A DNA stretch of 64,000 nt from a bacterium (GTDB taxonomy: Bacteria; Bacillota_I; Bacilli_A; RF39; UBA660), in the NCBI GenBank assembly GCA_029007115.1, contig JAQXHG010000037.1:23684-87683 (forward strand), written 5' to 3'. Positions within the stretch are counted from its first letter, which is position 1, and every line of letters begins with the position of its first letter. Positions 30,001 through 42,000 of the stretch are shown here, one piece after another. A program made the position numbers.

Positions 30001-33000
30001 GGAAAACAACAACATCTAAAAAATTAGCGATGTATTTAAAGTCTATGGGTGTTGATTCAATGGTAATATCTACTGATGATTATTTTGTAAATAGAGAGGA
30101 TAGTCCTAGAAAAGAAGACGGTTCTTATGAATTTGAAATAATTGATGCGCTTGATATAAAATTATTTAATTCTCATTTAAAAAAACTAATATCTGGTGAT
30201 GAAGTAGTAATACCTACATATAACTTTATTCTTGGCGAAAAACAATATAAAAATAAACCGGTTAAATTAAATAAAAATCAGATTCTTATAGTTGAGGGAT
30301 TGCATGCAGTTAATGAAAGATTAAATCAAGTAATACCAAGAAAGAATAAACTAAAATTATATATAAGTCCATTTACAACTATTAGTCTTGATAGACATAA
30401 TCATATATCAACTACAGATGTTAGATTATTAAGAAGAATGGTAAGAGATTACCAACATAGAGGATATTCTGCTGAAGATACATTAACTAATTGGATGGGA
30501 ATGAGAAAGAGTGAAGAAACATATGTATATCCATATCAAAGACAAGCGGATATAATTGTTAATACTTCATTAGGTTATGAAATTGGAGTATTAAGAGCAT
30601 ATGCAGAACCATTACTATTTTCAATTAGTAAAGAATCTCAATACTATGAAGAGGCTATTAGAATATTAAAATTCCTGAAAAGTTTCTTAAATATACCAAG
30701 TATTTATGTACCAAATGTTAGTGTATTAAGAGAATTTATTGGGGATAGCTATTTTGAATAATAAGGAGGAAAGATAAAATGTTAAAAGTAGCAATTAATG
30801 GGTTTGGTAGAATTGGAAGATTAGCACTAAGATTAATGCAGGATGATAAAGATATAGAAGTAGTAGCAATTAATAATTTAAATGCAGATACAGAACAATT
30901 TGCATATCTTTATAAATATGATTCATCACATAGAACACTAAAAACAAAAATAAGTTATGATGATAAACATTTAATAGTAAAGGGTAAAAAAATTAATGTT
31001 TATAATGAAGCAGAACCAGAAAAATTACCTTGGAAAGAATTAGATGTAGATGTTGTATTAGAATGTACTGGAGTATTTACATCAACTGAAAAATGTATGG
31101 CACATATAAAGGCTGGTGCAAAACATGTAATTATTAGTGCTCCAGCTAAAGATGATATAACTAAAACAATAGTATATGGTGTTAATAATGAAGTATTTTC
31201 TAAAGATGACTTAGTAATCAGTGCAGCAAGTTGTACTACTAATTGTCTTGCACCAGTTGTTAAGTTATTAGATGAAAAATTTGGAGTTATAAAAGGATAT
31301 ATGACTACTGTTCATGCCATGACTAATGATCAAGAAACTTTAGATATCGTTCATAAAAAAGGAATATATTCTCGCCGTGGAAGAGCAGCATCATTAAACA
31401 TTATTCCAACATCAACAGGCGCAGCATCTCAAATAGGAAAGGTAATCCCACATTTAAATGGTAAAATGGATGGAGTGGCATTTAGAGTACCAGTTGGTGA
31501 TGGCTCAGTAGTAGATGTTACTTTAGAACTTAGCAAAAAAGTAACTAAAGAAGCTATTAATAATATGTTAAAATCAAAACAAAGTAAAACTTTAAAATAT
31601 ACAGAGGATCCAATTGTAAGTAGTGATGTTTTAGGTGAACAAACAGGTGCTTTAGTTGATGGTCTTTTGACAAATGTTATTGAAAGCGATGGAAAACAAT
31701 TAGTTAAGGTTGTTGCCTGGTATGACAATGAAGTTGGATACACTGCACAAATGATTAGAACAATGAAATTATTTATTTAATATAAATACCTTTAGTACAA
31801 ACTAAAGGTATTTTTTATATAAAAACAATCGTAAAAAAATAAATATTATATGTAAAATATATATCATTTTTTTTTAAAATATAGATATAAAGATTATTAT
31901 ATAGTATAATTAATTAGGTGTAAATATGACAATAAATATAAAAAAATTAAGAAAAAATAGTTTATTTTTTATTGTATGTATTGTATTAATAGTAGTATTA
32001 TCTCTATTAAGTTTTTTAGTTGATAAAAATGGTATAAATTTAGATAAGGAAGATTTAAATGATAAAGAGATTAATATTAATTCACTTGTTATAAATGAAA
32101 TAGTTACTTCTAATAATGGTATTGTTACTGATAGTGAAGGAAATTTATATGATTATATAGAAATATATAATGGTAGTGATAAAGATATTAATTTAAAAAA
32201 TTATGGGCTTAGTGATGAAGAGCAAAAAGTTAAATGGACATTTCCAGAAATGATAGTTAAAGCTAAGGGATATTTAGTAGTTAGTTTAAGTGGAAATAAA
32301 AATAATGTATTAAATGCATCTTTTAAACTTAAATCTAGTGGTGGAGAGATAGTAACATTATTTAAACCAAATGGTAAAGTAATTGATGCAATACAAACCG
32401 TAGCTTTAGAATCAAATACTTGTATGGCTAGAAATGAAAATGGTACTTGGGTAATTCAAGATAAACCAACTCCAGGATTTGCAAACAATGTTGAAGGACA
32501 TACAGCTTTTATCAATTCACTTTTAAGTAATGATGATAAAACTATAGTTATTAATGAAATATTAGCTGAAAATAAAGGGAATTTTAAAAATAATAATAAT
32601 GAATATAGTGGATATATAGAAATAAAGAATGTATCTAGTGAAACTATTGATATTACAAATTATTCTATTTCTAATAGTGAAGATGTTAGTTTTAAATGGC
32701 AATTTCCATCTATGAAATTAAAGTCTGGTGAGGTTAAAGTAGTTTATACATCTGGTATAAGTAGAAAAGATGGTGAATTAAATAGTTCATTTAAACTTAA
32801 AAACAAAGATGGAGTTGTAGTACTTACTAATAATAAGGGTAAAGTTATTGATAAGGTAGAATATAATAATTTGGCAAATGGTGTTGCTTATATTAAGCAA
32901 GAAGATAGTTTTTTTAGCAGTAATTCAATATCTCCAGGATATCAAAATACTGTTGATGGTATAAAAGAATTTCAAAAAAAATATCTAGTAAATTCAAGTG

Positions 33001-39000: not shown

Positions 39001-42000
39001 AGTGATGTTAGATTAAAAAAAGAAATATATGATCTTAAAAAAGCATATCCTGAATTAATAACTATACATATTAATAGACCAAACTTTGATAATGGCTTAA
39101 CTGAAGAGCAAAAAAGACATAAAACTGAAGTTGATTTAGATGATTTTACAGATTTTAATATTAATATCGAGAATACTACATTAGAAAAATTAAAAAAAGA
39201 TGCATCAATTGTATACATAAATAATGAAAGTTAGGTGTAAAAATGAAAAGTATAAAGAATGTTAATGTAAAAGGAAAAAGAGTTTTAGTTAGAGTTGATT
39301 TTAATGTACCAATCAAGGATGGTAAAATTACTGATGATACTAGAATAGTAGGTAGTCTTGAAACAATTAATTACTTAATTGAAAAGGGTGCTAAAATTAT
39401 ATTGTTATCTCATTTAGGAAGGGTTAAATCTGATGAAGATAAGAAAAAGAATAGTTTAAGTATTGTTGCAAAAAAATTATCATCAATGGTGAATGTTCCT
39501 GTATATTTTGTTCCAACTACAAGAGGTAGTATTATTGAAGAGACTATTAAAAACTTATTAGATGGAGAAATACTATTGCTAGAAAATACGAGATTTGAAG
39601 ATTATCCAAAAACATTAGAAAGTTCATGTGATGAGGCTTTATCTAAATATTGGGCTAAGCTTGGTGATATATTTGTTCTTGATGCATTTGGAAGTGCACA
39701 TCGATGCCACGCGTCAACTTATGGTATATCAAAATATATTCCATCATATGCTGGATTCTTAGTAGAAAAGGAAACTAATATGTTAGATGAGGCAATAAGT
39801 AAAGAAAAGACACTTATACTAGGTGGTGCTAAAGTTGATGATAAAATAGGAGTAATAGATAATTTAATAAATACATCAGATTATTTATTACTTGGAGGGG
39901 CTATGTGTTTTACCTTTTTAAAAGCAGATGGTGTAAATGTTGGTAAAAGTATTGTATCTACTGAAAATATAGAATATGCTTCTAAAGTTCTTAATAAAAA
40001 TAAAAATAAAATATTAATGCCTATTGATGTAGTTACACAAAATGGAATTAAAGATATAGATAAATTAGATAGTGAAGATATTGGTTATGATATTGGACCT
40101 AAAACTATAAAGAAATATCAAGAAGTACTAAAAAATAGTAAATTAGTTTTATGGAATGGACCTCTTGGAATGTATGAAGAAAAAGACTATGAAAATGGTA
40201 CTAAAGAAATTTTAGAATTTTTAAGTAAACAAAAATATCATACAATTTTAGCAGGTGGTGATATTGTGGCATCATCAAAATATTTTAATGTAAATCTTTA
40301 CTATGTATCTACTGGCGGTGGTTCTACACTAGAGTATCTAGAAGGAAAGAGATTTAAAACTTTGGAAAGATTAAACGGAGAATAATGTATGAAAAAAGTA
40401 ATTCTTAACCATAAGAGTTATTTAATGTATGATGAAATAGTAGAGTTTAAAAAAGAATTTGAAACCTTAAATTATAATAATATTGAATTTATATTATTTC
40501 CTTCAGTACAATATTTGAGTATATTTAATAATGCAAATTATTCTGTTGGAACCGAGAATTTCTTTTCAGTTAAAGAAGGTGCTTTTTCTGGAGAAATTAA
40601 TTTAGAATCTCTCAAAAGTATGAAAATCAACTATACTTTAATTGGTCAATATCAAAGAATTAAGATAATTGGTGAAACTAGTAAAATTATAAAAGAGAAA
40701 TTATTTAAATCATTAAGTAGTAAATGTAATACACTCCTTTGCATTGGAGAAAGTAAAAATACGAATAGAGCATTTTATTCTATAAAGAAAGAAATTAATA
40801 TGTATTTAAAATCTATAGAAAAGAGTTATCTAAAATATTTATCTATAGTATACGAGCCAAAATATTTAACTAATAATGTGAATTTACATAAACTAAAAGA
40901 AATAGTAAATCGAATAAAAATATATATGAAGAATAAATATAATACTAGTGTTGAAGTTTATTATAGTGGTTTTATTGATGAGAATGATGTTAGTAGTTTG
41001 TTTAATTTATTTGATGGTATTGTTCTTAATAAAAAGAGTACTAATATTGAAGAAATAAAGAAAATATGTAATATATTAGAAGATGAATAATCTTCTTTTT
41101 TAATAAATTTATACATAAAAACAATTTTTTATGTATATTTAAATATAATAATGTGAATAAAATGTAATAAAAGTATTTTTCGACATAATATGATACTTTA
41201 AGACAAAATATGACATACTACACCGTAGAAAAAAATATAATTTTGGTATTATAATAGAATAAAAGGAGAGATTATGAAAGTTAAAGTATTAGTAGTAGAT
41301 GACAATGAAGTGTTAGTAAATTTAATTATGAAGTACTTTAATGGTAGTAAAGAAATAGAAATAATAGGAAGGGCATCAAATGGTATAGAGGCAATAGAAA
41401 TGATAAAAACAAAGGAGTTTGATGTTTTATTGTTAGATTTAATTATGCCTTTAAAAGATGGCATAGGAGTATTAGATTATATGAAAGAGAGTAATATAAA
41501 GAAACAAGTTATTATGATGAGTTCATATAATCAAGAAGATATAATTAGAAAAATAAGCGAATATGGTGTTAGATATTTCGCATTAAAACCTTTTGATATG
41601 AATGATATTAGAAAGAAAATAATTGAGCTTAATATTTCAAAAATAAATAATGAAAGACTATTAGAATTGCCTGATAAAACAATTCAAATTCAAGTAACAA
41701 ATCTTTTACATGAACTTGGAATTCCATCTCACATAAAAGGATATCAATATATAAGAACAGCAATTTTAATGGTATATGATAATCCTGGTTTTATAGGAGG
41801 AATAACTAAAGAATTATATCCTGATATATCAATAAGATTTAATACATCTATTCAAAGAGTAGAAAGAGCAATAAGACATGCGATTGAAGTAGCATGGTTA
41901 AGAGGGGATATAGATTTAATGGAAAAAATATTTGGCCATAGTGTTGATATAGATAGGGCAAAGCCTACAAATTCTGAATTTATTGTTACAATTGCAGATA

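Follow-up and report, generated by a model that had tools for sequence, protein, structure and literature searches.

A six-gene CotH/VTC/DUF4956 cassette between gap and pgk in uncultured gut Bacilli, and its probable role in phospho-modification of the cell surface

Genes encoding a CotH protein, a "polyphosphate polymerase", and a DUF4956 protein have been described, along with a gene for a DUF4832 protein, as accessory genes that are contiguous with the pel operons of Gram-positive bacteria (Whitfield et al., 2020), and the pel-linked triad is known from streptococci, clostridia, and bifidobacteria. In Streptococcus intermedius, where the three genes are SIR_1592-1594, mutation of the gene for CotH or of that for an MgtC-like membrane protein reduces Pel-dependent aggregation, and the authors of that study report that the synteny of the three genes was not encountered away from Pel loci (mBio, 2025). 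The NELoc-2 locus of Clostridium perfringens carries genes for a VTC protein, a "tubulin-like" membrane protein, and CotH, in that order, beside a glycosyltransferase gene. Our literature search returned no biochemical function for the CotH/VTC/DUF4956 triad. Here, we describe such a triad in the genome of an RF39 (UBA660) bacterium. The stretch of DNA that was analyzed (hereafter, the window) comprises 64,000 nt, positions 23,684–87,683 of the forward strand of contig JAQXHG010000037.1 (GCA_029007115.1). Within the window, the genes for CotH, VTC, and DUF4956 are contiguous at 31926–36227 and are followed by genes for a lectin-like protein (p455), a phosphodiester glycosidase of the NAGPA family, and a P-loop protein resembling phage deoxynucleoside monophosphate (dNMP) kinases (dNMK-like). 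These six genes, which we refer to as the cassette, stand between the glycolytic genes gap and pgk.

We consider it reasonably probable that the six genes constitute a surface phospho-modification cassette, the insertion of which between gap and pgk dates back to the clade's ancestor, and that the cassette is co-transcribed with pgk and tpi, the latter two being passengers. Our comparison is based upon 80 genome loci, each spanning 21 kb, that were collected via Pgk and onto which every window protein was mapped. The order CotH-VTC-DUF4956-p455-NAGPA-dNMK-pgk is present in 31 species-level loci, counted besides the window and the near-identical locus L002, and such recurrence indicates that the arrangement is not due to chance. 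A locus 97% identical to the window was found in a metagenome-assembled genome labeled "Bacilli bacterium", and the nearest relatives are uncultured gut bacteria labeled Bacilli, Mollicutes, Tenericutes, Erysipelotrichaceae, and Clostridium sp. CAG:524 and CAG:1000. The core of the cassette is already known: in Firmicutes, it accompanies Pel and other exopolysaccharide loci as a functionally unexplained accessory set. What appears from the gene maps to be new is an extended variant of it that is located inside a core glycolytic operon and is stable in at least 31 species.

All six cassette genes are under purifying selection, and the cassette is by this measure functional: Nei-Gojobori estimates of the ratio of nonsynonymous to synonymous substitution rates (dN/dS) are 0.03–0.15 when the window is compared with L002, with the lowest value for DUF4956 (0.03), and they are similar against L003. 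VTC and DUF4956 are better conserved than Pgk across the 31 loci (median amino-acid identity to the window proteins of 79% vs. 70.5%; the remaining medians are given in Table 1).

The cassette is a newcomer to the operon. In L038, L040, L041, L045, and L046, in which Pgk is ~50–55% identical to that of the window, there is no cassette; udk-gap is followed by 1–4 kb of unrelated genes and then by pgk-tpi-spo0A-gpmI. In more distant bacteria among the 80 loci, whiA, gap, pgk, and tpi directly adjoin one another. An earlier, sequence-only reading of the window had proposed that the module may have recruited pgk and tpi and had named beforehand the adjacency of gap and pgk in the absence of the module as an argument to the contrary; it is this adjacency that the more distant genomes display. 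Since the outgroups retain gap and pgk-tpi-spo0A-gpmI without the cassette, pgk-tpi is the older resident. Judging from these gene orders, the ancestral arrangement appears to be udk-gap-pgk-tpi-spo0A-gpmI, with the cassette as an old insertion between gap and pgk, and the landing site may have been between an old pgk promoter and pgk. A mobile element was considered as the source, but the GC content is ~25% across the window with no compositional break at the cassette, and no integrase or recombinase was apparent among the translations of open reading frames (ORFs) that were read (repeats were not searched for), which together suggest that the insertion is old and fully ameliorated.

The cassette and its immediate surroundings vary among the carriers. 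The interval between gap and CotH is empty in the window and in L003, but L034 and L037 have a murE-like gene there, on the opposite strand, and L026 has a pilin-like gene. In L005 (789–2591), L011, L013, L028, and L039, glmS is located between gap and the CotH promoter, where it is not found in the window; its product, glutamine-fructose-6-phosphate aminotransferase, is the entry to UDP-GlcNAc synthesis. The NAGPA gene is missing in L034, L035, and L037, and both it and the p455 gene are missing in L032. Two carriers have a gene for an Acyl_transf_3 membrane O-acyltransferase between the NAGPA and dNMK-like genes (L020, 8295–9329; L022, 8308–9342), and its presence within the cassette hints at a glycan substrate. 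One further locus, L036 (Pgk 59% identical), encodes a 456-aa membrane-anchored protein (144–1514) directly before pgk and has no dNMK-like gene there; the protein ends in a DUF6273-type motif, WWLRS...GVSPAFRIG, and the contig ends upstream of its gene.

To examine the start of the cassette, the 160 nt located 5′ of CotH were aligned over 14 loci. A site of the form T[AG]GA[AT]A-N17-TATAAT, which in the window lies within ATAGTATAAT, is found ~20 nt before the CotH ATG in all 14, and is kept regardless of whether the upstream gene is glmS, the murE-like gene, the pilin-like gene, or gap. At the other end of the cassette, the dNMK-like gene and pgk are separated by 4–30 nt in all 31 loci; in the window, the Shine-Dalgarno sequence of pgk (GGTAGGTG) encloses the stop codon of the dNMK-like gene, whose coding end forms the region before pgk. 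In the outgroups L040 and L045, pgk is immediately preceded by a terminator-like hairpin and a promoter-like site (TAGTGTATAAT). From the hairpins that we scored, no terminator-like site would credibly break the run from the cassette through pgk to tpi, and pgk-tpi is now most likely read from the cassette transcript, as a passenger rather than a recruited part. One candidate hairpin was rejected as a probable false positive of the scan; it is located at 36271–36297, in the first 65 nt of the p455 gene, which encode the start with its transmembrane (TM) segment. An Rfam scan of 28–46 kb returned no riboswitch and no other RNA. Two resemblances were also observed: the ribosome-binding regions of CotH (31915–31928) and pgk (39232–39245) are nearly identical (TTAGGTGTAAATATG vs. 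TTAGGTGTAAAAATG), and the CotH promoter (TATAGTATAAT) resembles the site TAGTGTATAAT that precedes pgk in the cassette-free outgroups.

Pgk has every hallmark of a conventional glycolytic enzyme. It matches the Pfam PGK profile over its full length (423 bits, residues 4–369), its motifs (SHLGR, NTRF, AHR, GGAKV, WNGPLG, and GGG) are all canonical, and it evolves like gap and gpmI across the 31 loci. The suspicion that the tpi product is catalytically altered proved to be well founded. It scores 98 bits against Pfam TIM and 75 bits against the NCBIfam model, for which the cut-off is 255, and it has LIGQYQR in place of IGHSERR, such that the catalytic H95 and the neighboring E97 are replaced by Q87 and Q89. 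N7, K9, and E156 are retained, but loop 6 (YEPKYLTNNV), loop 7 (YSGF), and loop 8 (LNKKS) are all degenerate. With a dN/dS of 0.11 against L002 and 0.22 against L003, the gene is not a free-running pseudogene.

This type of alteration is common only to the window, L002, and, in part, L003. Most of the other cassette carriers encode a Tpi with GH[FY]ERRK, YEPNWAIGTG, and YGGS, although clade members with the canonical residues also score below the curated cut-offs. Elsewhere, the histidine is replaced by leucine and the glutamate by isoleucine (L025 and L029), or the glutamate alone is replaced by isoleucine (L010 and L018), valine (L026), or aspartate (L019). In seven loci (L020, L022, L023, L024, L027, L032, and L039), tpi is missing within the 21 kb; in L027 and L039, spo0A directly follows pgk, and in L020 and L023, pgk is followed by unrelated surface-protein genes. 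Since the Tpi of carriers may be canonical, differently mutated, or missing, the altered form is not a conserved partner of the cassette. The different catalytic substitutions in different lineages indicate that tpi decay has apparently been repeated and independent, and that the constraint on tpi has been relaxed or shifted repeatedly within the clade, seemingly independently of the cassette. Thus, of the coupling of the cassette to pgk-tpi that the sequence-only reading proposed, co-transcription is supported, insofar as the tight junctions suggest it, and recruitment is not, given that pgk-tpi predates the cassette, that Pgk is canonical, and that an altered Tpi is no feature of the module as such.

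The features of the locus are compiled in Table 1. The ORF list reproduces the co-directional run of eight genes at 31926–41090 that had been noted previously, together with its close spacing and the terminator after gap, placed earlier at ~31800, which has a 13-bp stem and a T-run. Within the run, CotH and VTC overlap by 4 nt, p455 and NAGPA by 8 nt, and NAGPA and the dNMK-like gene by 8 nt, while VTC and DUF4956 are separated by 13 nt, DUF4956 and p455 by 5 nt, the dNMK-like gene and pgk by 8 nt, and pgk and tpi by 3 nt. The overlap of p455 and NAGPA assumes the NAGPA ATG at 37593, which is also the start in an independent gene call on an identical contig; an alternative GTG is located at 37584.

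Table 1. Features of the cassette and its flanks in the window, with the median amino-acid identity to the window protein over the 31 loci
Feature	Position	Strand	Basis	Median identity
gap, type I glyceraldehyde-3-phosphate dehydrogenase (Gap); upstream flank of the insertion	30779..31780	+	Pfam Gp_dh_N + Gp_dh_C; TIGR01534 421 bits vs. cut-off 367	79.5%
Terminator-like hairpin after gap	31784..31813	+	13-bp stem, 4-nt loop, then T-run TTTTATAT	
Sigma-70-type promoter-like site of cassette, TAGATA-17-TATAAT within ATAGTATAAT	31882..31910	+	Promoter scan + conservation	
Membrane-anchored CotH-family kinase	31926..34838	+	Pfam, TM prediction, alignment	66%
Soluble VTC-domain protein, triphosphate-tunnel fold, polyphosphate-polymerase-like	34835..35521	+	Pfam	79%
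DUF4956 integral membrane protein, ~4 TM helices, MgtC/SapB-like	35535..36227	+	Pfam, TM prediction	79%
p455, membrane-anchored, beta-rich C-type-lectin-like (DUF6273-like) domains	36233..37600	+		49%
Membrane-anchored NAGPA/DUF2233-type phosphodiester glycosidase	37593..38681	+	Pfam, solved-structure matches	67%
Phage-type dNMP-kinase-like (dNMK-like) P-loop protein	38674..39234	+	Pfam DNMK, PHROG 139	72%
pgk, canonical phosphoglycerate kinase	39243..40385	+	Pfam PGK, motifs	70.5%
tpi-like gene, altered active site	40389..41090	+	Alignment, NCBIfam scores	54%

Domain assignments made earlier without database searches were borne out, as three lamin-tail domains, CHB_HEX_C, CotH, VTC, DUF4956, NAGPA, DNMK, PGK, and TIM were all found above the Pfam gathering cut-offs, and these domains are consistent with the phosphoryl and phosphodiester theme that had been suggested. 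The surface exposure proposed for several members likewise agrees with the topology predicted from hydropathy, in which CotH, p455, and NAGPA each have one N-terminal anchor, DUF4956 has ~4 TM helices, and VTC and the dNMK-like protein are soluble; no TM helix is predicted in Pgk or Tpi.

The CotH protein (970 aa) has a TM helix at residues 14–32, followed by the three lamin-tail domains (148 bits), a CHB_HEX_C_1/Fn3_assoc domain, and a full-length CotH domain at residues 632–947 (PF08757; 139 bits vs. a cut-off of 23.8, profile positions 2–322 of 322). Because a PDB sequence search with the whole protein gave no match, its active site was judged by conservation and residue spacing alone. K643/K644, N812-x-D814, D837, and R921-W922 are invariant with respect to the CotH proteins of a Pseudobutyrivibrio and a Planococcus plasmid, which are only 18–19% identical, and the 23-residue spacing of D814 and D837 matches that of D228 and D251 of Bacillus subtilis CotH, an equivalence by spacing rather than by direct alignment. 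Substitution of these B. subtilis residues inactivates the kinase.

The VTC protein is a stand-alone protein of 228 aa without a TM helix (Pfam VTC, 118 bits) and has a weak match to the catalytic domain of yeast Vtc4 (3g3q; E = 6e-4). Its family comprises 4652 clusters at 50% identity. A subset of bacterial VTC proteins (P0365, P0380, P0382, P0413, and P0422) is extended at the N terminus by 180–400 disordered, charged residues in which K, R, E, P, and Q abound and neither a Pfam domain nor a TM helix was found. The DUF4956 protein (Pfam, 41 bits) has a weak NCBIfam match to MgtC/SapB over residues 73–217, in line with how its counterpart in streptococci has been described. The p455 protein (455 aa) has C-type-lectin-like folds and no significant Pfam match. 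NAGPA (Pfam, 122 bits, profile positions 1–168 of 169; TM residues 17–35) matches the bacterial structures 6ozd and 3ohg, as well as the NAGPA uncovering-enzyme structures 6pku and 6pky, with E values of 1e-5 to 1e-7 over its RTAIG...NLDGGGS core. The dNMK-like protein scores 35.8 bits against Pfam DNMK (cut-off, 27.1), its P-loop GKAKHGKDT fits GxxxxGKD[TS], and it matches PHROG 139, "deoxynucleoside monophosphate kinase", with an E value of 3e-27, but the T4 enzyme 1dek with one of 0.07 only. It has 709 detectable homologues, and in searches with it, p455, and DUF4956 the best 120 matches were orthologues from the same clade, with no distant contexts or informative names among them.

The most likely role of the cassette, we infer, is phospho-modification of a surface glycopolymer or a surface protein. 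Its products would attach phosphate or sugar-phosphate groups to such a substrate and trim them. At the membrane, VTC and DUF4956 would supply or regulate the phosphoryl donor, which the surface-anchored CotH would use to transfer phosphate outside the cell, while the lectin-like p455 would bind the substrate and NAGPA would remove capping sugars from phosphodiesters. A more elaborate version can be imagined, in which VTC and DUF4956 form a bacterial VTC machine that polymerizes the phosphate of ATP and passes it across the membrane, as donor for a surface CotH that acts on a wall glycopolymer trimmed by NAGPA; in this clade, the system would have come under the glycolytic promoter, such that Pgk, which produces ATP, and VTC, which consumes it, are co-expressed. 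Exported polyphosphate is attractive because a kinase on the outside needs a donor, but we regard this elaborate version as speculative and quite unlikely.

Several observations weigh against a surface phospho-modification cassette with pgk-tpi as passengers. No pel-like, polysaccharide-synthase, or glycan-synthase gene that would point to a substrate was apparent among the ORF translations read across the 64 kb. An extracellular kinase has no obvious ATP supply, and both polyphosphate synthesis by VTC and polyphosphate export by DUF4956 would be hypothetical steps. Ten longer VTC representatives among the best 150 were scanned with Pfam, and five were read; none of the ten proved to be fused to DUF4956, CotH, or a membrane domain. 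The dNMK-like gene may have a housekeeping function that is separate from that of the others, as it is retained beside pgk where NAGPA or p455 has been lost; indeed, it is the sole cassette gene that never leaves the side of pgk. With regard to transcription, promoters within coding regions may exist in a genome of 25% GC, and a generic promoter scan returned 120 sites where 121 were expected by chance, which makes the scan uninformative in such AT-rich DNA. The CotH promoter-like site was among the sites of the scan, but only its conservation across species set it apart.

Other explanations can be weighed against the same evidence. Since the only biochemically characterized CotH is a Ser/Thr protein kinase, the cassette enzyme might be directed at secreted or surface proteins, either its own or those of a host, with NAGPA and p455 as unrelated neighbors. 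That the triad stays where NAGPA (L034 and L037) or both NAGPA and p455 (L032) are missing would fit such an explanation. However, the triad repeatedly occurs within polysaccharide and cell-wall loci, an O-acyltransferase gene is found within the cassette of two species, and the S. intermedius mutants affect Pel-dependent aggregation, and we consider a CotH directed at proteins to be unlikely, if worth keeping in mind. One might also suppose that the module includes Pgk and the altered TIM-barrel protein as functional components that, for example, make or isomerize a phosphorylated precursor. The eight genes do have tight junctions, pgk directly follows the cassette in 31 genomes, and the altered Tpi is under purifying selection (dN/dS, 0.11–0.22). 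Nonetheless, gap-pgk-tpi-spo0A-gpmI is older than the cassette, Pgk is canonical and changes at the rate of gpmI, and the Tpi of the carriers is mostly canonical, differently mutated in some, and without a gene at that position in seven. A second pgk that could assume the glycolytic role is not apparent, although no search aimed at one was made. We therefore attach hardly any weight to their membership.

The name CotH brings sporulation to mind, given that the family was defined by a spore-coat kinase and that spo0A is located nearby, 180 nt downstream of tpi. The protein would then phosphorylate spore-coat proteins as it does in Bacillus, from a cassette that is switched on in sporulating cells. 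Yet the N-terminal TM anchor and the three lamin-tail domains predict a CotH that faces outward rather than one in the mother-cell cytoplasm or at the spore coat, the conserved promoter-like site resembles the housekeeping sigma type, and pgk apparently depends on this transcript as well, which points to expression during vegetative growth. The triad is also found in streptococci, enterococci, and bifidobacteria that do not sporulate, and spo0A occupies the same position in cassette-free outgroups. A sporulation module is, in our opinion, very unlikely. We hold the same opinion of a role for VTC and DUF4956 in intracellular phosphate or polyphosphate homeostasis, with CotH acting mainly as an adhesin, as in Mucorales, and not as an enzyme. 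It would accommodate a soluble VTC protein predicted to be cytoplasmic and the resemblance of DUF4956 to MgtC, which regulates the balance of ATP and phosphate, and fungal CotH proteins are reported to act as invasins. It is difficult to reconcile with catalytic-type CotH residues that are invariant among homologues only 18% identical, and the linkage of VTC, DUF4956, and CotH across phyla argues for a shared pathway. Phospho-modification of the surface thus remains our preferred interpretation of the cassette.

The triad was also found on three plasmids when plasmid sequences were searched by tblastn with the VTC protein (a corresponding search with the CotH domain gave no match at E ≤ 1e-3). 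On Pseudobutyrivibrio xylanivorans pNP95, the genes are in the order of the window, CotH-VTC-DUF4956, among genes for glycosyltransferases, acyltransferases, and pyruvyltransferases, and a gene for a 2070-aa NAGPA-family protein is located 8 kb from them. A Planococcus plasmid has VTC-DUF4956-CotH followed by genes for a hypothetical protein, a HEAT-repeat protein, and a glycosyltransferase, while on an Enterococcus faecalis plasmid a muramoyl-alanine amidase gene is followed by VTC and DUF4956, a two-component system (response regulator and histidine kinase), and CotH. The clade described here and the three plasmids are counter-examples to a synteny limited to Pel, and the triad is thus a recurrent unit that goes with polymers of the cell envelope and also occurs outside Pel loci.

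The genes farther from the cassette are mostly of a housekeeping type. Among the ORF translations, upp, murD, gmk, glyA, ftsEX, and whiA were recognized upstream, and a large ribosomal-protein operon occupies the downstream part of the window. A 547-aa protein with a ThrRS/TGS-like N-terminal region and a uridine-kinase/PRK domain is encoded at 29118–30761, and its gene is the immediate upstream neighbor of gap throughout, outgroups included. The spo0A orthologue (receiver domain and Spo0A_C) is located at 41274–42035, between tpi and gpmI, and occurs at this position in L040, L045, L049, L058, L059, and L070 as well, which include outgroups labeled Mycoplasma sp. CAG:611 or Tenericutes; in L020, Spo0A is shortened to 169 aa and has lost most of its receiver domain. 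In most of the other loci gpmI begins 50–100 nt past spo0A, whereas in the window and L002 alone, two genes intervene (42110–44024), whose products are a 286-aa protein with a TM helix and a weak FxLYD-like match and a 311-aa protein without a match.

The triad is widespread and affects Pel-dependent aggregation in a pathogen, and our findings contradict the published view of it as a Pel-only set. The clade offers a natural experiment, in which the triad stands apart from any polysaccharide synthase, VTC and DUF4956 are more constrained than Pgk, and the three genes are probably expressed constitutively with glycolysis and are accompanied by genes for a lectin-like protein and a phosphodiester glycosidase. 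Taken together, these features narrow the hypotheses for its function to phospho-modification of a surface polymer. In addition, the recurrence of tpi decay and loss is informative on the carbon metabolism of these uncultured gut Bacilli.

How, then, does the locus compare with known systems? The central glycolytic operon of B. subtilis is cggR-gapA-pgk-tpiA-pgm-eno. Compared with such Firmicute operons, the window keeps the order gap, pgk, tpi, gpmI, but differs in the hairpin after gap, the 7.3-kb cassette before pgk, the spo0A gene between tpi and gpmI, and a Tpi that is catalytically altered. With the yeast VTC complex, the window shares a homologous catalytic domain (that of the polyphosphate polymerase Vtc4) and its pairing with a membrane protein; however, the window VTC protein has neither SPX nor a fused TM domain, and its membrane partner is DUF4956/MgtC-like rather than a Vtc1-type TM domain. 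The eukaryotic mannose-6-phosphate pathway likewise has a homologous phosphodiester glycosidase, the uncovering enzyme NAGPA, on the extracytoplasmic side, but the cassette has no transferase of the Stealth/GNPTAB type, and the enzyme that adds phosphate would be the CotH kinase.

Among bacterial loci, the C. perfringens NELoc-2/Planococcus type resembles the window in combining the triad with cell-envelope genes, but there VTC comes first, a HEAT-repeat protein and a glycosyltransferase follow, and NAGPA and the lectin-like protein are absent. The Gram-positive pel loci also have the three families contiguous and a CotH that is secreted or located at the surface. The window differs from them in having no pelDEADAFG operon, DUF4832 protein (no Pfam match among the cassette proteins), or glycan synthase nearby, in the three lamin-tail domains that its CotH carries instead of FN3, and in the addition of p455, NAGPA, and the P-loop kinase, all set within a glycolytic operon. 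The locus on pNP95 shares with the window the order CotH-VTC-DUF4956, the overlap of CotH and VTC, and a NAGPA-family protein; it differs in being plasmid-borne, in being embedded among glycosyltransferase, acyltransferase, and pyruvyltransferase genes, and in the multidomain nature of its NAGPA protein.

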